Below, one piece after another: positions 26,446 through 60,352 of a DNA stretch of 64,000 nucleotides. The stretch is from a virus (taxonomy: Duplodnaviria > Caudoviricetes). The stretch lies in the IMG/VR virus record IMGVR_UViG_3300028591_000108, positions 77,914-141,913 of that record; one strand, given 5' to 3'. Position 1 is the stretch's first letter, and every line of letters starts with the position of its first letter. The notes beneath the pieces were generated by a model. It saw only the letters and a list, made by a program, of their open reading frames with translations. It did no database searches and was not told the DNA's origin. Both the position numbers and the translations under genes were made by a program.

Positions 26446-26546
26446 ATATTTGACTTTTTTCAATTTTTATGTTATAATAAATAAAAGATTAGGAAAGGAA
26501 CTAATCTTTTAAAATATTTTTTCATTACATGAGGAGGTAATGAGAT

Positions 26547-27589: not shown

Positions 27590-27675
27590 TGCCCGTAGGT
27601 GTGCGGCTGCACGGGCGGTCTCTAAAACCGCGGCCTCTGAAGCGAACGGACTGGGTTCGACTCCCAGGCGGGCAG
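27590..27675 (+). tRNA. Amber suppressor tRNA (CUA), probably Gln-inserting
   Basis: Acceptor TGCCCGT/GCGGGCA, AC arm GCGGT-CTCTAAA-ACCGC, T arm CTGGG-TTCGACT-CCCAG, G73. Confidence 0.85.
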
Positions 27676-29599: not shown

Positions 29600-29715
29600 T
29601 AGACGTATCAGCAATATTCTTCGCTTTGGGAGCCCGTCAAGTGTTGGTTCGATTCCAACCCTCCCAACTGATGGGAGGTCGCTCAATTGGTAGAAGCGCG
29701 GTTATAGTACGTCTA
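29600..29715 (+). ncRNA. Stem-CAGCAA scaffold RNA copy 2 with circularly permuted tRNA module
   Basis: TAGACGTA/TACGTCTA stem; T arm, then closed acceptor CCTCCCA/TGGGAGG, then D arm. Confidence 0.8.
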
Positions 29716-29720
29716 GTTTT

Positions 29721-29794
29721 GGCCCGGTAGCTCAGTCCAGTAGAGCGTCTGACCGTTAATCAGAAAGTCCCAGGAGCAAAGCCTGGTCGGGCCG
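29721..29794 (+). tRNA. tRNA-Asn(GTT)
   Basis: Loop CCGTTAA; atypical T loop. Confidence 0.75.
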
Positions 29795-34163: not shown

Positions 34164-34306
34164 CTTTCCTTGAGCGGAAATTTCCGCTCGTTATGCCCAG
34201 ATGGTGAACCAGTGAACACCATCTGGTTTAAAAAAATTTAGTAAACTGAAAGAAAAAAAAATAGTTTGTTTACTTTAATAATACTCTTTATATGGAGGTG
34301 AGCGAT

Positions 34307-34913
34307 ATGAAAAAATGGGAAAAATTTTCGGATAAAGAATTAGAAATTATCGTTCAAAATAGCATTTCATATAGAGAGGTTGCACAAAAATTAGGATATG
34401 CAGAACGTAGTGGCGGTGGGTGTGATGCCGCGCGTGAAATGATTGAAGCTAAGGGTTTTAATATAGACCATTTTTTAGGTCAAGGATGGAATAAAAGTAA
34501 TTTTGATTATGAGCGTTTTCAAGCAGGTAAAGTAATTAAAAGTGCCGCTGCAATTCCAGCTTTAGTACAATTACGAGGACATAAATGTGAGAATTGTGGT
34601 GCAGAAACTTGGTTAGGAAATCCTATTCCATTAGAAGTACATCATATTAACGGTGACAGATTAAATAATACATTAGAGAACTTACAGCTGTTATGTCCTA
34701 ATTGTCATGCTCTTACTGATAATTTTAAGGGTAAAAATAACACTGGTGACAAAAAAAGTAGAAGACGAAGTATTAGTAGAAGCACTTAAAAATAGTTCTA
34801 GTATTCGTCAAGCATTAATTTCTGTTGGACTAGCGGGTCGCGGCGGAAACTATGAACGTGCTCACGAATTAATTGATAAATATAATATTACTAAATTTCA
34901 AAAAGGTGAGTAA
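34307..34913 (+). CDS. HNH endonuclease (frameshift in A-run near 34751)
   Basis: C..C, LEVHHINGD..NN..ENLQLLCPNCH. Confidence 0.8.
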
Positions 34914-35659: not shown

Positions 35660-35890
35660 ATGAGAAATCCAAATCGTATTGATAAGTTTTGTGATGAGCT
35701 TAAAGCGATTTGGCATCAAGTGCCAGATTGGCGCTTTGGGCAACTGATGGAAAATATGCTTAGTGCAAGACTACAAGCAGTATCAGACCCTAATGGTTTC
35801 TTTTATACTGAAGATGAAGAATTGTTTGCTTTCTTTAAAAGTTATATGAATGAAATTATAAAAGAAGGTAGACAAAATAAAGATTGGTAA
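35660..35890 (+). CDS. Conserved phage hypothetical protein
   Basis: MRNPNRI..W..VPDWRFGQL; promoter 35601-35629. Confidence 0.7.
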   Translation: MRNPNRIDKFCDELKAIWHQVPDWRFGQLMENMLSARLQAVSDPNGFFYTEDEELFAFFKSYMNEIIKEGRQNKDW

Positions 35891-36100
35891 TTACATAATC
35901 CACCTGACATGGCTGTGACTACAAGGCGCGGAAAGGTGGCGGCAATCTCTTGCCCAAGTAAGTTGAAACGATATACACTCTTGGGATGAAAAGCCTTAAT
36001 GATGCGAAGATAGAGATATCACGTGAGTTTAGATACATGTGTGTGTAGTCGGTCTCCCTGTGGCCCGTTACGTTAGTAAGTTGGCACAGGGGAAGCTTCT

Positions 36101-36246
36101 AGGAGTGTAAGATAACGGTAGTCGCGCGGTCTCCGGGGCGATAGTGTAAAGAACACGCTAGGAAAGCAAGGGCCTAGTAATTGAAGGGCAGTACTGAGGC
36201 GCTCCACCAAAAACCGCTCGTGTTGGTTCGAATCCAGCCGCTCCTG
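36101..36246 (+). tRNA. tRNA-Trp(CCA) interrupted by a 75-nt tRNA-like insert (36135-36209)
   Basis: Exons 36101-36134 + 36210-36246 give a canonical cloverleaf with loop CTCC|AAA, A1-U72, G73. Confidence 0.85.
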
Positions 36247-36250
36247 CTTA

Positions 36251-36314
36251 AAGACTCGTCAGCAACATTTTTCAAGCATCTGACTTTTAATCTGACTAGC
36301 TATAAACGAGTCTT
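36251..36314 (+). ncRNA. Stem-CAGCAA scaffold RNA copy 4 (tRNA-Lys arm-like payload)
   Basis: AAGACTCGT/ACGAGTCTT; AGCATCTGACTTTTAATC. Confidence 0.7.
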
Positions 36315-36321
36315 GTTTTAT

Positions 36322-36395
36322 GCCTTTCTATCCCAATTGGAAGAGGAAACCGACTCAAAATCGGCTCAGTTTGGGTTCAAATCCCAAGTTAGGCA
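36322..36395 (+). tRNA. tRNA-Leu(CAA), short variable loop
   Basis: Loop CTCAAAA; two acceptor mismatches. Confidence 0.7.
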
Positions 36396-36612
36396 CTCGC
36401 GCCATATAACTTAGGCGCATGGATTACATGTCATCCTTACTATTATACAATTTATTTAGACGTGCTTGAGGGTTCCCACCCGCTGTTGAGAAGAAGCAGA
36501 AAGGGATTATGGTGAGACTCGATAATACCGTAAATACTTTCGAGAAGTATAGGACAATGTTTGAAAAGCCGGATTTCTGTAATTGGGGCGATAACACCAT
36601 CTAGTCCTATAT

Positions 36613-36995: not shown

Positions 36996-37066
36996 GGGGA
37001 TATAGTATAACAGTAAAACAGTAGCTTTGCAAGCTTCAGACCGGGGAGCGTCACCCCGTATCTCCA
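36996..37066 (+). tRNA. tRNA-Ala(TGC)
   Basis: G3.U70; loop TTTGCAA. Confidence 0.8.
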
Positions 37067-37076
37067 CATTATTATA

Positions 37077-37147
37077 GGCTCCGAAATCTGGCGGCCGGAT
37101 ACTTGTCTGCAAAACTTGTTTAGTCAGTTCGACTCTGACCGGAGCCT
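37077..37147 (+). tRNA. tRNA-Cys(GCA)
   Basis: Loop CTGCAAA; U73; weak AC stem. Confidence 0.7.
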
Positions 37148-37468: not shown

Positions 37469-37713
37469 GAAAAGGCCGCGGTATAGATCATTATTGGGAA
37501 GTAAGAAAATATTTAGGCGATATAGCTTTATATGCTCATTGCAAATGCGGATTTGAATATGCTTGTTCTTCCAATAAAAGAAAACCAGATGGAAGTGTTA
37601 GTTTTGAGCAAGAAATTACTAAGCTATACTTATATTGTCCTTATTGTGGAGCACGAAAAAAATGGTATAATGATATACCCAGAAAAATAGATAGACTTCA
37701 ATATGGCGGGTGA
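37465..37713 (+). CDS. Small zinc-ribbon protein
   Basis: HCKC...CPYC; stop lies inside the next tRNA. Confidence 0.55.
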   Translation: MRKGRGIDHYWEVRKYLGDIALYAHCKCGFEYACSSNKRKPDGSVSFEQEITKLYLYCPYCGARKKWYNDIPRKIDRLQYGG

Positions 37714-37787
37714 ACCCGGCAAGGCGTGGGACCTGTCTCGAAAACAGTGGGAGCGTAAAGCTTATGGTTCGAGTCCATCGCCCGTCG
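37705..37787 (+). tRNA. tRNA-Ser(CGA)
   Basis: Loop CTCGAAA; long variable arm; G73. Confidence 0.8.
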
Positions 37788-38480: not shown

Positions 38481-38588
38481 TAGACGGTTACAGCAATTAT
38501 TGCATACAAGGTGTCATTGGTTCAAATCCAATCTTCTCCATTGGAGAAGTAGCTCAATTGGTAGAGCAATTGATTATGAAACTGTCTA
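38481..38588 (+). ncRNA. Stem-CAGCAA scaffold RNA copy 5 with circularly permuted tRNA module
   Basis: TAGACGGTT/AACTGTCTA; T arm, CTTCTCC-ATT-GGAGAAG, D arm. Confidence 0.8.
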
Positions 38589-38595
38589 GTATTTA

Positions 38596-39086: not shown

Positions 39087-39240
39087 AGTCCCTTAGCGTA
39101 ATGGTAGCGCAGTGGACTTTCGGCTCATAGTTTATTTGGCAAAATACTTTTAAACTAGTTGAGAGATATCAAGAGAAATAGGTTCGATCCCTATTGAGCC
39201 GACGACTCCACACGTGTTGGTCCGATTCCAACAGGGACTG
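39087..39240 (+). tRNA. tRNA-Gln(TTG) interrupted by an 83-nt tRNA-like insert (39121-39203)
   Basis: Exons 39087-39120 + 39204-39240 give GTGGA-CTTT|GAC-TCCAC, AGTCCCT/AGGGACT, G73. Confidence 0.8.
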
Positions 39241-39258
39241 CTTTTAGGAGGGATTATT

Positions 39259-41593: not shown

Positions 41594-42409
41594 ATGAATT
41601 TTGATATTTATACTGAAGAAATGAGTAAATCGGTGTGGGATAAAGCTTTCTTTATGGATAAAATTATCGGTGCGAAGCTTGTTATTGACTTTGGATGCGC
41701 TGACGGCGCTATGATTCGTATGCTTGCGCCGTTGTTTCCCAACACCACTTTCTATGGTTATGACATTAATGATGATTTGATTATTGAGGCTTGGCGCAAA
41801 CTTGAATCTCCTGCGGATAAAAATACTTTCTTCTTTCATAAGGAGAGAAGCTTTGCCGATCGACATGATAGTTTTGAAGATATGATTGCTATGGCAATGC
41901 AGTATTACAAGCCTGATGAAATTTGTATTAACTTTTCTTCTGTGCTACATGAAGTTTTTTCTTCTAGCCCTAGTGGTAAAGAAACTATTCGACGCCTTGT
42001 TAAAGAACTGCAGCCGAAGTACATTACTATTCGAGATATGTATTGGCACGCGGTTTCTAGCGTAAATGTACTACGTTGCTCAGAAGATAAGATCCGAGCG
42101 CAGGTAGAAGAAAAGTATCTCAATGATTATGAAGCTACGTTTGATTATATACACTCTCCCCAGTCTATTACTCATTTCCTTATGAAGTACCAGTGGAAAG
42201 ACAATGGATGGGAAGATGAAATGAAAGAAAACTATTTTTCCTATACTATTGAGGATTTTCTCAATGCTATGTGCCGATGGCAGTATACTACTGTATTTGA
42301 ATCTCATTATCAGCTTCCTTATTTGACAGAAAAATGGAAGAATGAATATGATTTCTTTGTGCCAGAAGCGCATACTCATGCACAGTTTATTCTTAGGAGG
42401 AATGATTAA
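41594..42409 (+). CDS. Class I SAM-dependent methyltransferase
   Basis: VIDFGCADG, YGYD, SSVLHEV. Confidence 0.8.
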   Translation: MNFDIYTEEMSKSVWDKAFFMDKIIGAKLVIDFGCADGAMIRMLAPLFPNTTFYGYDINDDLIIEAWRKLESPADKNTFFFHKERSFADRHDSFEDMIAMAMQYYKPDEICINFSSVLHEVFSSSPSGKETIRRLVKELQPKYITIRDMYWHAVSSVNVLRCSEDKIRAQVEEKYLNDYEATFDYIHSPQSITHFLMKYQWKDNGWEDEMKENYFSYTIEDFLNAMCRWQYTTVFESHYQLPYLTEKWKNEYDFFVPEAHTHAQFILRRND

Positions 42410-42936
42410 TGGCGATTTTATATATTCTTTGCGGCCCGAGCGCTTGTGGTAAAAGCACTTGGCGCGACACTTTTATTGCAGAGCATAGCGATAAGGATAT
42501 TCGATATGTTTCTCGTGACGAAATTCGTTTTTCTATGCTTGAAGAAGGCGAAGATTATTTTGCTCATGAGAAAGAAGTTTTCAAGAAGTTTGTTAGCACC
42601 TTGGCGCAGACTCTTGTTGACGGATTTGACGTAATTGCAGACGCTACTCATCTTAATGAGTTTTCGCGCAAGAAGCTTACCAACGCACTTGACCGTATTG
42701 GCGTAGATTATGAAATTAAGTATGTAGTATTCTATACCTTGTACTCCGAATGCTGTGAGCGGGATGCAATGCGCGAAGGCATGGCATACGTAGGTCCTGA
42801 TGTTATTCGTGGAATGTTCCGCTCCTTTAAGGCGCCGACTCTTGAAGAAGATCGTCGCGCCACAGAAATTATTGAAGTAGGAAATAAGAAAGGAGATTTT
42901 TCCTTTCTGATAGACCCCTACTGGAAGGAGATGTAA
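42409..42936 (+). CDS. Polynucleotide kinase-like P-loop protein (AAA_33)
   Basis: GPSACGKST, SRDEIR, DATHL..R. Confidence 0.8.
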   Translation: MAILYILCGPSACGKSTWRDTFIAEHSDKDIRYVSRDEIRFSMLEEGEDYFAHEKEVFKKFVSTLAQTLVDGFDVIADATHLNEFSRKKLTNALDRIGVDYEIKYVVFYTLYSECCERDAMREGMAYVGPDVIRGMFRSFKAPTLEEDRRATEIIEVGNKKGDFSFLIDPYWKEM

Positions 42937-42937
42937 G

Positions 42938-43504
42938 ATGGGTGATATTTGGCTCTCGTCAGATTTACATCTGATGCATAATAAGCCATTCTTATACGAA
43001 CCTCGTGGCTTTACTTCTACCGAGGAAATGTGTGAAGCTATTGTAGAACGTTGGAACTCAGTTGTAAGAGACGAAGATCTTGTTTATAATCTAGGCGATA
43101 TTGCTCTTAGCGATGTTGATGCAGCTATTCCTTATCTACAGCGGCTTAAGGGACACCAAATATGGATTCTCGGGAACCACGATACTTTAGGAAAGATAGA
43201 GAAAATCTTGCCTGCATGTCCCAAAATCCAGCTTCTTGGCACTGAAAGGACTTCTTATGCCACTGTCATTAAGAGCGGAAAATGGAGCTTTTATCTATCG
43301 CATTATCCCACTTTGACTGGAAATAACGAAACTTGGCGTAAAGTAGCTAATCTTTGTGGCCATAGTCATACGCAAGACAAATGGGTTGACTGGGACAAAA
43401 TGTGCTATCATGTAGAGATGGATGCCCATGACTGCTATCCAGTAAATTTGGAACATATTAAAGATCAAATTCGAAAGAAATATTTGACTTCTCTTGAAAA
43501 TTGA
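42938..43504 (+). CDS. Calcineurin-like metallophosphoesterase
   Basis: SDLH, LGD, GNHD, SHYP, GHSH. Confidence 0.85.
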   Translation: MGDIWLSSDLHLMHNKPFLYEPRGFTSTEEMCEAIVERWNSVVRDEDLVYNLGDIALSDVDAAIPYLQRLKGHQIWILGNHDTLGKIEKILPACPKIQLLGTERTSYATVIKSGKWSFYLSHYPTLTGNNETWRKVANLCGHSHTQDKWVDWDKMCYHVEMDAHDCYPVNLEHIKDQIRKKYLTSLEN

Positions 43505-44050: not shown

Positions 44051-44305
44051 ATGATCTATCGCCGGAAGTCAGAGACAGTTGAAGCAATCATGTTTGACGG
44101 CTCTAATTTAGAGCAAATTCGGCAGTTCCTGAAAGATTATTTCAAATATGGCCATATTATGGAAGATGGACATTTATTTTTAATGCTAAATAGTAATAAT
44201 GCGCTTTATAGCGCACAGGTTTATGATTATATTGTAGTAGATAAAATGCATGGATTTACTATGAATAAGAAAGCCTTTGAAAATACTTATATCCCGCGGT
44301 CTTGA
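44051..44305 (+). CDS. Hypothetical protein (YR.K..VEA family)
   Basis: MIYRRK..VEAI.FDG..FE.TY. Confidence 0.65.
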   Translation: MIYRRKSETVEAIMFDGSNLEQIRQFLKDYFKYGHIMEDGHLFLMLNSNNALYSAQVYDYIVVDKMHGFTMNKKAFENTYIPRS

Positions 44306-44334
44306 TAAAGACTAAGATGAAAAGGAGAAAAAAA

Positions 44335-45828
44335 ATGAACGAACTACTAAAGAATCTGAAGACTGAAACTAATTACCGTTATACCGAGAACGGCGCCCTG
44401 ACTCATAAGTCTACGCTAAATAAAGTGCTGGATATGTTTGCTATGGGCGGTTCTATGCGTAATCGCTCTGACGATGATGTTATTAACATGTTCAAGCAGG
44501 CATACGAAGAGGATAGGACTCTTGCGCTAAAGTGTCTCTTCTATCTGCGCGATGTACGCGGCGGTGCAGGTGAGAGACGATTTTTCCGCATTTGTATCAA
44601 GTGGCTTGCTAATGAATGTCCGGAAGAGATGGAACACCTAATTCCCCTCATTAGTGAATATGGCCGCTACGACGACCTTTTTGAGCTATTTGGCACTCCT
44701 TGCGAAGCCGCGATGATAGGATATATTTTCCATGTCCTTAATAAGAATGAAGATCATCTTATTTATAAATGGATGCCTTCGATCAATGCATCTTCTAAAG
44801 AAAGCAAAATTCGTGGACGTAAATTCGTGCATGAATTCGGCATGACTGAGCGTCAGTATCGTCAGATGCTTTCTGAAGGCCGCAAAGCCTGTCACTTGGT
44901 CGAAACTCTTATGAGCCAGAATCAGTGGAACCAGATTGCATTTGATAAGCTGCCTTCTCGCGCAGGTCTTCTATATAAGAATGCTTTCATGCGCCGTGAG
45001 GAAACTAAAGAACGCTATGCTGAGTTTATGTCCCGCAAGGACACTAAGGTAAATGCGAGTGTACTGAATCCTGTTGAAATCGCGCACCAGATTCTTGGTA
45101 CGTGGAGTACTCCCTCTGCTACTGAGCGTCAGGCTTGGCAGAAGTATTGGGATAATCTGAAAGATTATTACAATGGCCGCGAAGAGCCTGGCATTGCAGT
45201 AGTTGATGTCAGTGGCAGTATGAGTGGCACTCCTATGGAAGCCGCAGTTTCTATGGGTGCGTATATTGCCGAACGCGGGAAAGGCCCGTTCCAGAATCAT
45301 TTTATTACTTTCAGCGCTAATCCGCAGCTAGTAGAATTTGAAGGCGTAGATATCTATGATAAGTTTAAACGTGCGGTACGTGCAGACTGGGGACAGAATA
45401 CGAACCTTGAAGCAGTATTTGATATGCTGCTGGAGACTGGTCTACGCAATCATGTGCCAGATGCCGAAATGCCGAAGACGATTTACATATTTTCGGATAT
45501 GGAATTCGATCACGGTTTGACTTGCGGCGCGCGTTCCCTTGATCGTTGGGACTATAATATGCGTTCTATGAATCGCTCGCAGATTGATACACTCATTGAG
45601 GCTAAGACTAAAGAATGGATGTGGGCAGGATATACCGCACCGAGAGTAATCTTCTGGAACCTCAATGCTCGGCAGCCCAACATTCCCGCTATTGGCCCGG
45701 GATTCTCCTATTGTAGCGGTTTCTCTATGAGCGCGCTTGAAGGAGTACTTTCCGGTAAAGATGGTATCAAAATGATGCGAACTGTACTAGAAGGAGAGCG
45801 CTATGCGCCAATTTCTAGTGTTCTATAA
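44335..45828 (+). CDS. DUF2828 family protein (TROVE/Ro60-like helical domain + vWA)
   Basis: TENGA..ST..LDMF, FYLRDVRGGAGER, MIDAS DVSGSM, IFSDMEFD, IFWNL. Confidence 0.8.
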   Translation: MNELLKNLKTETNYRYTENGALTHKSTLNKVLDMFAMGGSMRNRSDDDVINMFKQAYEEDRTLALKCLFYLRDVRGGAGERRFFRICIKWLANECPEEMEHLIPLISEYGRYDDLFELFGTPCEAAMIGYIFHVLNKNEDHLIYKWMPSINASSKESKIRGRKFVHEFGMTERQYRQMLSEGRKACHLVETLMSQNQWNQIAFDKLPSRAGLLYKNAFMRREETKERYAEFMSRKDTKVNASVLNPVEIAHQILGTWSTPSATERQAWQKYWDNLKDYYNGREEPGIAVVDVSGSMSGTPMEAAVSMGAYIAERGKGPFQNHFITFSANPQLVEFEGVDIYDKFKRAVRADWGQNTNLEAVFDMLLETGLRNHVPDAEMPKTIYIFSDMEFDHGLTCGARSLDRWDYNMRSMNRSQIDTLIEAKTKEWMWAGYTAPRVIFWNLNARQPNIPAIGPGFSYCSGFSMSALEGVLSGKDGIKMMRTVLEGERYAPISSVL

Positions 45829-50229: not shown

Positions 50230-51462
50230 ATGCTGAATAAAAATTCCGAGCGCGAACTCGCCTATGTAGTTCTAATTGATGGTATTGAACCGATTCCTGG
50301 TTATGATCGTGTAGAACATGCAATTGTTGGCGGCTGGCGTGTAATTGTACAGAAAGATCAGTTTAAAGTGGGCGATCCTGCTATTTATTTCGAGATTGAC
50401 TCGCGCGTTCCTTCTGATAAGGAATGTTTTGCCTTCCTTGAGAAGCGCAATTATAAAGTTAAGACTTTGAAGATGTGCAAAACTATTTCTCAGGGTTTGC
50501 TTATGCACGCTGATGATTTTGGTTGGACCATTGGTGATGGATCTGAATTTATTGAAAAGTCTCCTTATATCATGGATGATGAGCATATGATTCATTTTGC
50601 CACTGGAGAATCTCGTTTCCTTACTACTAAACTGGGTGTAACTTATGCAGATGAAGAAGATAATATTCGTAAGGCCGCGCCAGTTGATAAGTATAAGAAA
50701 ATGGCTCAGCGGCATCAGAAGCTTTTCAAGAAACCTTTTGTACGCTGGTTGATGCGACATAAGTTTGGCCGCGAAATTATGTTTTTCTTCTTTGGGAAGA
50801 AGAAAGATAAGAAGAACGGATGGCCTGCTTGGGTATCTAAGACTGATGAAGAACGCGTACAGAACATGCCTTGGATACTGGAAGATTCCGGCGACTGGGT
50901 AGCCACTGAAAAAATTGATGGTACTAGCACTACCTTTACTATGAAGCGTGGAAAATTTGGCAAAAAGAACTTTTATGTATGCTCTCGTAATGTTTGCTTC
51001 GGTGAAGAAAATAAGCCTTGCTATTATGATACCAACGTATATTGGGAAATGGCAAAGAAATACAATATCTTTGAAGTTCTTTCCGAGATGCTTGAAAAGT
51101 ATCCTCAGGAAGAATGGATTACCATTCAAGGCGAAACTTACGGTGATGACGTACAGCGGCGTGATTATTCTCTAACTGGACATGATTTTGCCGCCTTTAA
51201 TTTGATTTTCTCTTCTAAAGGACGGGTTGGTACTTTGGAAATGCTCAAAATTCTTGCAGAATATGACGTTCCTTGTGTACCCGTGCTTGAAAGTTGTATG
51301 AAAATAAATCAGTTTGAAAATGTTGATGCTATTCTTGCATATGCAGATGGTAATTCTGTAAAAGACGATAAGCCTCGTGAGGGAATCGTATTCCGCTCTA
51401 CTGATGGCGCTAAGTCTTTTAAGGCAGTGAGCAACAGCTTTTTGCTGAAATATCATGGATAA
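50230..51462 (+). CDS. ATP-dependent RNA ligase (Rnl2/DRB0094-like)
   Basis: N-terminal OB-like domain (YFEIDS, SQGLL); motif I TEKIDGT; QGE; EGIV; SFKAVS. Confidence 0.85.
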   Translation: MLNKNSERELAYVVLIDGIEPIPGYDRVEHAIVGGWRVIVQKDQFKVGDPAIYFEIDSRVPSDKECFAFLEKRNYKVKTLKMCKTISQGLLMHADDFGWTIGDGSEFIEKSPYIMDDEHMIHFATGESRFLTTKLGVTYADEEDNIRKAAPVDKYKKMAQRHQKLFKKPFVRWLMRHKFGREIMFFFFGKKKDKKNGWPAWVSKTDEERVQNMPWILEDSGDWVATEKIDGTSTTFTMKRGKFGKKNFYVCSRNVCFGEENKPCYYDTNVYWEMAKKYNIFEVLSEMLEKYPQEEWITIQGETYGDDVQRRDYSLTGHDFAAFNLIFSSKGRVGTLEMLKILAEYDVPCVPVLESCMKINQFENVDAILAYADGNSVKDDKPREGIVFRSTDGAKSFKAVSNSFLLKYHG

Positions 51463-58514: not shown

Positions 58515-59120
58515 ATGGACTTAGAAGAATTATTCGGTGAAGTAGAAAAATTTGGATTTGATCCAATTACGTATCAATACTTTCATCAATTGCTAGATAA
58601 GCGTACTATTATTTTAAATGAGTACGTTACTGATGCAACTGTAGAAAAAGTATATCTTCCGTTAAAAGAATTTGAAGAGGACTATTCTACCGATCCGGTA
58701 ACACTAATCCTAAACTCTTGCGGCGGTAGTGTAGCTAATGGCCTCTACCTCGCGCAATATATTTCGCTATATTCTAAACCACTAAATATTATCGTGCCAG
58801 GCATGGCCGCAAGTATGGCAGGAATTATTCTTGCTGGCGGTGGAAAAAATGAAAATGTAATTCGATATGGTTTCCCTGCATCTTATGTCCTGCTTCATGA
58901 TGGCTATGTAGCACTCGAATCCAGTGAGAGTCGTACAGCAGATGATATTATGGAATTTAATAAGAGCGTGGATGTAGATATTCGAGACTTTATTATTGCT
59001 AATACTAACATAACTCCAGAGATGTACGATGCACACACAAGAAAGCAATGGTTCATAAAAGGTAAAGAACTAATTGATTTGGGAATGCTCGACCATCTGT
59101 ATGGAGTTGATGATAAATGA
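58515..59120 (+). CDS. ClpP-like protease subunit
   Basis: LNSCGGSV, AASMA, LLHDG. Confidence 0.75.
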   Translation: MDLEELFGEVEKFGFDPITYQYFHQLLDKRTIILNEYVTDATVEKVYLPLKEFEEDYSTDPVTLILNSCGGSVANGLYLAQYISLYSKPLNIIVPGMAASMAGIILAGGGKNENVIRYGFPASYVLLHDGYVALESSESRTADDIMEFNKSVDVDIRDFIIANTNITPEMYDAHTRKQWFIKGKELIDLGMLDHLYGVDDK

Positions 59121-60352
59121 TTAAGCACTTTGCAGATACATCTTATATTCTACATGGAGCGGCTGAAGGTCATATCGCCATCAGCCCTTTAACTTTATGT
59201 GAGCTAGAACATATTAAAGGAAATGAACATGAAAGTTCGGAGATTAAGTTCCGGGCACGTGAAGCCATTCGTACAATTATGGAAGGTATCAAATATGAAG
59301 TTATATTAGATGATAATAAAAAGATAGATAAGCTACTAAAGAAATATAGTTTTTTAAGTAATATCAATGACCATCGAATTATTCTTGCCGCTGAAATTTT
59401 CGCGCAAGAAGAGAAAGCAGACATAATCTTTCTTACCTGTGACGCAACGCAATATCAATTTGCGCTTCAGATGCCACATCTTTTGGCCACTTATACTCCG
59501 GCCCGAAAAGCACCCACTGAAGAATGGTGCGGATGGGCTAAGTATTATCCAAATGAGCAAGAGATGTCTATGCTTTATACTGATTCCAAAATGAATATTT
59601 TGAAAGCCAAAACTAATGAGTTTTGCAAGATATATGAAGGAGCAGAACTTAAGGATGTATTATTTTGGACAGGGGAAGAATATCGGCCTTTAAAATATAA
59701 AGATATACGTAATCCTTATATTCAAGAGACAATTAGTCCACGCAACTTAGAGCAGAAAATGGCATTTGATTTGTTACAAAATCAAGATATAAAAGTTAAA
59801 CTGTTGACTAGTGCTTGGGGTAGCGGGAAAACTTTACTTGCGCTCTCATATGCGCTAGAACAAGTACATAAGGGAAAATATCGCAAGCTAATATTTGTAC
59901 GCAATAATATTATTGTTGCAGATACAAATGACATAGGATATTTGCCTGGCGATTTAAAGGATAAGATGTCTATATGGGGTGGCCCATTGGCAGATCATCT
60001 AGGTGGCCCAGATGTACTAGATCAATTAATAGATGATGGAGTTATTGAAATTTTCCCTTTGTCTCATATTCGTGGTAGATCCATTAGAGATGCAATTGTC
60101 ATTTGTGATGAATGTGAGAATATGAACGATAAACTTGTAACACTACTAATGAGTCGTATTGAAGATGGAAGCGAATTGATCTTCTGCGGTGATATCGCGC
60201 AAATTGATCATCATAAGTTTGAAAAAAATAATGGAATTCGCTCAATGTTAGAAAATCTGAGCGGCCAGCCATTATTTGGCGCAGTAAAATTAGTAAAATC
60301 GGAAAGGGGAAATGTAGCTCGCATGTGCGACTTGATGATTCCTCCAGTATAA
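59117..60352 (+). CDS. phoH: PIN-PhoH protein
   Basis: PIN (DTS, ELE, NDHRI); GSGKT, GYLPG, RGRS, DECEN, GDIAQID. Confidence 0.85.
   Translation: MIKHFADTSYILHGAAEGHIAISPLTLCELEHIKGNEHESSEIKFRAREAIRTIMEGIKYEVILDDNKKIDKLLKKYSFLSNINDHRIILAAEIFAQEEKADIIFLTCDATQYQFALQMPHLLATYTPARKAPTEEWCGWAKYYPNEQEMSMLYTDSKMNILKAKTNEFCKIYEGAELKDVLFWTGEEYRPLKYKDIRNPYIQETISPRNLEQKMAFDLLQNQDIKVKLLTSAWGSGKTLLALSYALEQVHKGKYRKLIFVRNNIIVADTNDIGYLPGDLKDKMSIWGGPLADHLGGPDVLDQLIDDGVIEIFPLSHIRGRSIRDAIVICDECENMNDKLVTLLMSRIEDGSELIFCGDIAQIDHHKFEKNNGIRSMLENLSGQPLFGAVKLVKSERGNVARMCDLMIPPV

Follow-up and report, generated by a model that had tools for sequence, protein, structure and literature searches.

Genomic setting and structure of the split tRNA-Trp gene

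The tRNA array of the window, i.e. the 64,000-nt stretch of phage DNA analysed here (bases 77914-141913 of an IMG/VR virus record of 141,913 bp with an estimated completeness of 78%), contains a tRNA-Trp(CCA) gene whose anticodon is interrupted by a 75-nt tRNA-like element (Table 1). All tRNA genes of the record are located in this one array at 27.5-39.2 kb. The split gene is its only tRNA-Trp gene: no other was found in the window, as stated in a first-pass annotation made from the sequence alone, or in the whole record. Since long frames appear only if TAG is read through, the phage is TAG-recoded.

Table 1. Coordinates of the nested tRNA genes, the parts of the 75-nt insert and the candidate RNA-processing genes in the window.
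Feature	Position	Strand	Remarks
Exon 1 of tRNA-Trp(CCA)	36101..36134	+	acceptor 5' strand, D arm, anticodon stem 5' strand, loop nt 32-35
75-nt tRNA-like insert	36135..36209	+	R1 model 95.6 bits; one of 33 family copies
Insert acceptor	36135-36140 with 36200-36205	+	6 bp
Insert D-like hairpin	36144-36156	+	
Insert hairpin	36158-36177	+	5-bp stem; invariant 10-nt loop 36163-36172
Insert T-like region	36182-36198	+	
Insert discriminator A and encoded CCA	36206; 36207-36209	+	
Exon 2 of tRNA-Trp(CCA)	36210..36246	+	loop nt 36-38, anticodon stem 3' strand, variable loop, T arm
tRNA-Ala(UGC)	36996..37066	+	Rfam tRNA 46.1 bits; G3.U70, A73, unusual T loop
tRNA-Gln(UUG), second nested gene	39087..39241	+	exons 39087-39120, 39204-39241; aragorn -i
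P-loop kinase (AAA_33, Pnkp/PSTK-like) and metallophosphoesterase	42409..43504	+	candidate RNA end-healing pair
ATP-dependent RNA ligase, DRB0094-like	50230..51462	+	PF21189 + PF09414; candidate sealing enzyme

Joining of the two exons results in a 71-nt tRNA-Trp(cca) with an A1-U72 pair and G73 according to ARAGORN. The acceptor 3' strand and G73 are also provided by exon 2, and the CCA end is not encoded. Among 52 loci from related phages (~170-190 kb) obtained in a protein-guided search, an uninterrupted tRNA-Trp allele was identified in L031 (12284-12355), a contig that shares approximately 88-90% identity with the window around the locus. This empty-site allele is identical to the joined exons at 70 of 71 positions, with exon 1 matching L031:12284-12317 at 33 of 34. 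As only the removal of 36135-36209 and no shifted boundary reproduces the L031 sequence, the insertion is located exactly between anticodon nt 35 and 36, which confirms both the restorable tRNA-Trp and the position of the break proposed in the first-pass annotation. The same allele rules out the Leu(caa) reading that results from the intron option of ARAGORN, which detects the split gene with a boundary off by 1-2 nt. Alleles without the insert (L031, L022, L028) occur alongside split ones.

The same split tRNA-Trp gene was detected in independent contigs from other samples (L008/L120 and L116). Compared to the copy in the window, their inserts are identical at 73/75 (L008/L120) and 75/75 (L116) positions, while their exons differ at many positions, including compensatory changes at the pairs 6-67, 11-24 and 49-65, and fold as intact cloverleaves after exon joining. 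In G001, the 176,887-bp genome to which L008/L120 belong (98% complete), the split gene is likewise the sole tRNA-Trp gene. An assembly chimera or sequencing artefact, a concern already raised in the first-pass annotation, is practically excluded because independent contigs hold the same split gene with the same junctions; moreover, the element occurs in 33 places and no point in support of an artefact was found. Single-sequence folding was uninformative (z -1.6 for the insert, -0.1 for the whole locus), and a search of GenBank phages returned ordinary tRNA similarity only.

The array and its surroundings contain further features of note. An HNH endonuclease gene is located at 34292-34789, and the tRNA arrays of the relatives are mosaic, L008 for instance having an additional tRNA-Ile adjoining the Trp gene. 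A tRNA(cta) of 86 nt (27590-27675), with 90-99% identity in relatives, has an anticodon arm one base away from that of the phage tRNA-Trp; its top Rfam score is to tRNA-Sec (33 bits, sub-threshold), and it probably represents the working amber suppressor. Rfam finds several tRNA genes that ARAGORN misses, namely the Ala UGC gene, an Asn GUU gene (29721-29794) and Cys GCA and Ser CGA genes (37077-37147 and 37705-37786), the Ser CGA identity having been read by eye. The T loops of the Ala and Asn genes lack the usual TTC motif, and a G-rich T-loop variant is common to many inserts and some outer tRNAs of the relatives. An Rfam match to the cow-rumen-4 RNA (26481-26543; 59.6 bits, over the gathering score) fits a rumen origin of the phage.

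The insert belongs to a tRNA-like RNA family

Taken by itself, the 75-nt insert is not recognised as a tRNA by ARAGORN, and the Rfam tRNA model reaches a sub-threshold score of 22.8 bits on it, borrowing the outer T arm. A pattern of two motifs, together with a covariance model (R1), recovered 33 family copies, of which 21 are distinct; each of them lies in a phage-type contig. Thirty two-motif hits in bacterial and archaeal genomes were regarded as chance matches, none of them being confirmed by R1. Likewise, nine of the 10 loci retrieved by an exact-junction scan of viral contigs were due to chance, and a 17-mer from the 5' part of the insert gave 10 chance matches and one true one.

Over the 21 distinct members the acceptor and the D-like hairpin are paired to 100%, the hairpin with the 10-nt loop to 97% and the T-like stem to 57%. 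Both sides have changed in 11 of the 20 pairs, eight of which lie within the three well-paired helices, a degree of covariation matched by none of 500 shuffles. Hardly any variation, if any, is seen across the family in the 10-nt loop or the T-like loop. All six acceptor pairs and an encoded CCA are present in 21/21 distinct copies, while CCA is encoded in only 3 of 20 ordinary tRNAs of the window and in about 43% of those of the relatives. The tRNA-like parts listed in the first-pass annotation (acceptor followed by A and CCA, D-like hairpin, 10-nt-loop hairpin and weak T-like stem) were all confirmed, and the acceptor, D-like and anticodon-like helices covary. The T-like stem of the window copy is weak with three of five pairs; nested copies have on average 3.9/5 pairs in this stem versus 2.1/5 in free-standing ones, a difference which is only suggestive given that the free-standing copies are close kin.

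Invariant loops combined with covarying helices are also a property of ribozymes, and HDV-like theta ribozymes occur next to tRNAs in phages of related kinds (PMC10879173). However, a small ribozyme with self-cleaving or self-splicing activity seems a very improbable identity for the insert: Rfam searches at E up to 10 gave no match to any ribozyme or intron, the supported fold is a cloverleaf of three hairpins closed by a terminal acceptor helix instead of an HDV-like double pseudoknot, and 75 nt is far under the size of group I or group II introns.

The covariance model R1 also matches ordinary tRNA-Ala(UGC) genes of the relatives (42.7 bits in L047, 27.5 bits in L043), which have the acceptor and the unusual T loop in common with the insert. 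A tRNA-Ala gene of this kind is located at 36996-37066 of the window. On these grounds the family is most likely derived from a phage tRNA-Ala that has lost its decoding ability, since a 10-nt loop replaces the anticodon loop. The window copy has neither a 7-nt loop with an Ala anticodon nor an intact T arm. It does carry G3.U70 and A73, and AlaRS does not need the anticodon. Among the 21 distinct copies the pair 3-70 is G.U in 16, G-C in four, always together with G73, and A-U in one. The AlaRS identity noted in the first-pass annotation consequently holds for the window copy, which presumably took it over from its tRNA-Ala ancestor, but it has been lost in 5/21 distinct copies. Charging of the window copy with alanine is possible; the replacement of G.U by G-C or A-U in part of the family indicates that it is not a conserved requirement.

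Free-standing and nested copies of the element

The element was found in 23 contexts, of which 13 are free-standing genes in tRNA arrays and 10 are nested in tRNAs. Its initial description as an intron therefore applies to the nested contexts, but not to the larger number in which it forms a gene of its own. Free-standing copies are usually located a few bases past another tRNA behind a short AT spacer, and a small ORF of 52 aa downstream of them has no homologue in the genome of the window. Nested copies interrupt tRNA-Trp at 35/36 (window, L116, L008), tRNA-Lys(UUU) at 34/35 (L102), 35/36 (L052, L112) and 36/37 (L035), tRNA-Gln(UUG) at 34/35 (L115, L114) and an amber-suppressor tRNA at 35/36 (L080). 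The search among related phages for tRNA-like inserts at 35/36, as suggested in the first-pass annotation, was hence positive for Trp, Lys and the amber suppressor and additionally revealed sites at 34/35 and 36/37.

In all 10 nested cases the joining of the flanks at model positions 1 and 75 generates a tRNA with a 7-nt loop according to ARAGORN, with 19-22 pairs called and no mismatches. Since the flanks of the nested copies are unrelated between the host tRNAs and the same ends nevertheless restore the tRNA in 10/10 cases, the boundaries of the insert are set by the element itself, reaching from its base 1 to the A of CCA. The assumption that the tRNA-like ends of the insert define its excision is strengthened by this agreement across four tRNA species and three loop positions.

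Directly 3' of the free-standing copies in L087 (1873-1990), L104 (3654-3770) and L090 (1240-1353), orphan 3' halves of a Phe-like tRNA were detected which begin at anticodon nt 36, a complete tRNA-Phe being located upstream. This arrangement looks like the product of a recombination between a nested and a free-standing arrangement. The two states evidently interconvert by recombination, some interrupted genes being lost.

A second nested gene and other inserts in tRNA genes

A tRNA-Gln(UUG) gene of the window is split at nt 35/36 by an 83-nt tRNA-shaped RNA (39121-39203) which is unrelated to the 75-nt insert. Empty-site alleles occur in L027 (8545-8616), L029, L091 and L033; they rule out the Glu(ttc) reading by ARAGORN, and the joined exons form an intact cloverleaf. 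The 83-nt insert starts with base 1 of a 7-bp acceptor helix and ends with the discriminator plus one nucleotide (C), not with CCA. By ARAGORN the inner RNA is typed as an amber-suppressor tRNA (cta), a reading that we do not adopt, since the anticodon arm is doubtful in view of A33, a weak stem and the failure of Infernal to align it. No relatives of the inner RNA were detected by BLAST among all loci, and an 18-mer match in L154 was attributed to chance.

Two relatives have other inserts in the same Gln gene, namely a minihelix of 43 nt (L022) and an insert of 86 nt (L071). In L031 (15528-16086) and L045 (6201-6759) the gene is broken after approximately nt 25 by an HNH-type endonuclease ORF, which a replacement tRNA-Gln(ttg) follows; the 3' remainder of the original gene persists, but bases are lost and the gene is not restorable. 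This suggests a homing cassette carrying its own copy of the gene it destroys. In G001 (L008:7675-7785) the replacement tRNA and an orphan Gln exon 2 remain. Two odd tRNA-like stretches with a common 7-nt start are located between tRNA-Ser and tRNA-Gln in L008 (7517-7660) and are called by neither ARAGORN nor Rfam.

Applied to the 52 related loci (L022-L073), aragorn -i predicted 75 intron-bearing tRNAs. Many of the inserts are minihelices of 43-56 nt consisting of acceptor, T arm and NCCA, others are tRNA-shaped with 68-117 nt; inserts of about 175 nt were found in tRNA(cta) and of 260-330 nt in tRNA-Leu(taa), the latter of which may be group I introns. An automatic parse of the insert boundaries in 40 of the aragorn -i calls was ambiguous, with several mis-set boundaries including that of the Trp gene of the window, and was used qualitatively only; in this ambiguous parse some related inserts seem to end in CAA.

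These observations bear on the question whether the outer tRNA-Trp is restored at all. The nesting could be a side effect of recombination, or of a selfish element that spreads in mosaic tRNA arrays, in which case only the inner RNA would be matured, the outer halves would be discarded as leader and trailer and the phage would use the host tRNA-Trp. The 13 free-standing contexts, the orphan 3' halves in L087, L104 and L090, the orphan Gln exon 2 in G001, the identical inserts in diverged exons, which point to a recent spread, and the disruption of the Gln gene by homing-endonuclease cassettes in L031 and L045 are in line with such a scenario. It nevertheless seems unlikely to us: in each of the 10 nested contexts an undamaged cloverleaf can be restored exactly, compensatory changes distinguish the outer Trp alleles, even the 98%-complete genome has no Trp gene other than the split one, and true breakage by an HNH cassette, with bases lost and no restorable gene, looks different.

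RNA-processing genes and predicted maturation route

The ORF at 50230 was referred to as a ligase in the first-pass annotation, and the domain analysis identifies an RNA ligase. The protein contains PF09414 and an N-terminal PHA02142 OB domain, both over the Pfam cut-offs, and matches TIGR02306 (DRB0094) with an E of 6e-32 at 110.9 bits, i.e. below the curated cut-off of 151. Ligase homologues or PF09414 proteins were found in 5/5 complete relatives. The occurrence of the PF09414 ligase does not track the nesting, as relatives with and without a nested 75-nt element both have it.

Two metallophosphoesterases in all, a methyltransferase, a RlaP nucleotidyltransferase and a PIN-PhoH2 protein (59117-60352) are also encoded nearby. 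The genome lacks EndA (PF01974), RtcB, a CCA-adding enzyme and a reverse transcriptase. Furthermore, a DUF2828/DUF7788 protein (44302-45828), which is putatively Ro60/TROVE-like, is encoded in a cluster with the methyltransferase, kinase, phosphoesterase, RlaP and RNA ligase. Sub-threshold matches to YrlA (Y RNA-like) were obtained at 38481-38591 and 29642-29697 (34.9 bits, E 1.6e-4); together with the cluster around 44302-45828 they may constitute a phage Ro/Y-RNA RNA-repair module.

The locus represents a real tRNA-Trp(CCA) gene in which a complete second RNA gene is nested. We consider it reasonably probable, with moderate confidence, that its maturation involves RNase P, a cut after CCA and an ATP-dependent ligase. 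The sequences directly show the exact insertion, the intact outer gene, the conserved and structured insert, its self-defined boundaries in 10 contexts and the ligase gene; the two cuts and the sealing step are predictions, as would be any role of the 75-nt RNA once set free. RNase P and the cut after CCA are proposed because the nested copy spans exactly the ends of a mature RNA, from base 1 to CCA. Cleavage by either enzyme, RNase P or RNase Z, generates a 3'-OH and a 5'-phosphate, i.e. the substrate of ATP-dependent RNA ligases. In the first step RNase P would cleave on the 5' side of the inner G1, so that exon 1 ends in a 3'-OH; in the second an RNase Z-type endonuclease would cut just past the inner CCA and provide exon 2 with a 5'-phosphate. 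The outer cloverleaf would hold the exons together as a nick in the anticodon loop, the sealing of which would fall to an ATP-dependent RNA ligase, for instance the one encoded at 50230-51462. In this way a single transcript would yield both tRNA-Trp and a free 75-nt RNA.

With respect to the 3' cut, archaeal and Bacillus RNase Z cleave CCA-containing precursors just downstream of CCA, and the Thermotoga enzyme cuts past CCA for 45 tRNAs; a mature 5' end is required first (PMC7479834). On the other hand, CCA inhibits Bacillus RNase Z (PMC7479834). Further counter-points to the proposed route are the weak T-like stem (3/5 pairs), which may make the insert a poor substrate for RNase P and RNase Z, and the orphan exon halves in the relatives. 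Moreover, one simple 3'-cut rule does not cover all inserts, because the 83-nt insert ends with the discriminator plus 1 nt and some inserts seemingly with CAA.

Alternatively, the insert could be excised by a dedicated phage nuclease, either the PIN-PhoH2 protein or an unrecognised enzyme, followed by kinase/phosphoesterase healing and ligation as in the T4 repair. PIN nucleases cut tRNA anticodon loops, the window contains a full heal-and-seal set (methyltransferase, AAA_33 kinase, two metallophosphoesterases, RlaP and RNA ligase), and the 3' boundaries vary across the insert families. The end-healing pair would be needed only if the cuts leave 5'-OH and cyclic phosphate ends. We regard an excision by a phage nuclease as rather doubtful, since the boundaries coincide with the tRNA 5' and CCA ends already recognised by host enzymes, free-standing copies must be cut at the same two bonds and no nuclease gene is linked to the inserts. 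The repair set, for its part, would be expected anyway in phages facing anticodon nucleases.

A further possibility concerns the origin of the nesting. The nested copies might be fossils of an RNA-level event in which the phage repair ligase inserted an abundant tRNA-like RNA with 5'-phosphate and 3'-OH ends into loops opened by anticodon nucleases, the product being copied into DNA afterwards. This is proposed because the inserts correspond to the mature RNA without the AT spacer that precedes free-standing genes and because they occur at the variable bonds 34/35, 35/36 and 36/37. The reverse path would then amount to a third, protein-only pathway of tRNA splicing by RNase P, a cut after CCA and a ligase. 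We consider this scenario distinctly improbable; if it were true, the supply of Trp, Gln, Lys or suppressor tRNA would depend on the phage ligase, and this dependence could time translation or the code switch.

To our knowledge, group I introns are the only tRNA introns established in bacteria and phages. A restoration of the outer tRNA as outlined in our preferred interpretation would represent tRNA splicing without a splicing endonuclease or a ribozyme, relying on universal end-processing enzymes and a nick-sealing ligase. The proposed mechanism is plausible, and this kind of insert has barely been described before. As the same 75-nt RNA occurs free-standing and nested in four tRNA species, with empty alleles available, the question of splicing is directly testable. 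It might also provide a job for RNA ligases, which show a strong enrichment in recoded gut phages (PMC10879173). In practical terms, the sole genes for tRNA-Trp and tRNA-Gln in phages of this kind escape the usual tRNA-finding programs.

Comparison with known systems

The group I introns in tRNAs of bacteria, plastids and phages resemble the insert in their anticodon-loop position, patchy distribution and mobility. They differ from it in size (>200 nt versus 75 nt) and in their P1-P9 core, while the ends of the insert are set by the acceptor helix and CCA. The bulge-helix-bulge (BHB) introns of archaea and eukaryotes as well as split and permuted tRNA genes share with the proposed route a protein-dependent excision and ligation in the anticodon region, and non-canonical positions occur among them. 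However, the ends predicted for the insert are 3'-OH and 5'-phosphate instead of cyclic phosphate and 5'-OH, and a conserved exon-intron helix is impossible because the same element has unrelated flanks in its Trp, Lys, Gln and suppressor hosts. The first-pass annotation had already argued against a group I/II intron and a BHB motif, which is upheld by the lack of any Rfam match to a group I/II catalytic core in 35800-36500 (E up to 10), the length of 75 nt, the unrelated flanks and the absence of PF01974.

In the T4 repair system (cut by PrrC, healing by Pnkp, sealing by Rnl1) a phage ligase also seals a nick in the anticodon loop, and the window likewise encodes a kinase and a phosphoesterase. 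In T4, however, a host defence nuclease breaks an intact tRNA, whereas in the case of the insert the break would be programmed by the nested gene. The release of a tRNA-shaped unit from a longer transcript by RNase P and RNase Z is familiar from mitochondrial tRNA punctuation, the mascRNA of MALAT1 and engineered tRNA scaffolds, but none of these systems joins the flanks again to make another functional tRNA. The tRNA-like domain of tmRNA, minihelix-Ala and tRNA-Ala have G3.U70, A73 and CCA in common with the insert of the window, which in turn is distinguished from these alanine mimics by its 10-nt loop, its degenerate T stem and the loss of G3.U70 in 5/21 distinct relatives. As regards the sealing step, Kienbeck et al. 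(2024) reported that ligases of the DRB0094 family are 140-fold enriched in phages with tRNA-flanking theta ribozymes (PMC10879173).

While we found no paper on nested tRNAs as such, the closest precedent is the description of "enigmatic" introns in tRNAs of Lak megaphages by Devoto et al. (2019; Fig. 4), including one that is shared unchanged between cohorts and possibly encodes a tRNA (PMC6784885); the remark was repeated for jumbo phages in a survey of 2026 (PMC13037316). As in the window, these are TAG-recoded phages with an anticodon-loop insert that is possibly itself a tRNA, the insert is near-identical across genomes, and alleles with and without it coexist. These two papers only remark on the introns, without a family, a structure test or a mechanism. 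In contrast, the insert described here belongs to a defined covarying RNA family, most likely derived from tRNA-Ala, that exists both as a stand-alone gene and as a portable insert, in four tRNA species and at three positions, and in every host tRNA the 75-nt element has the boundaries of the mature RNA.
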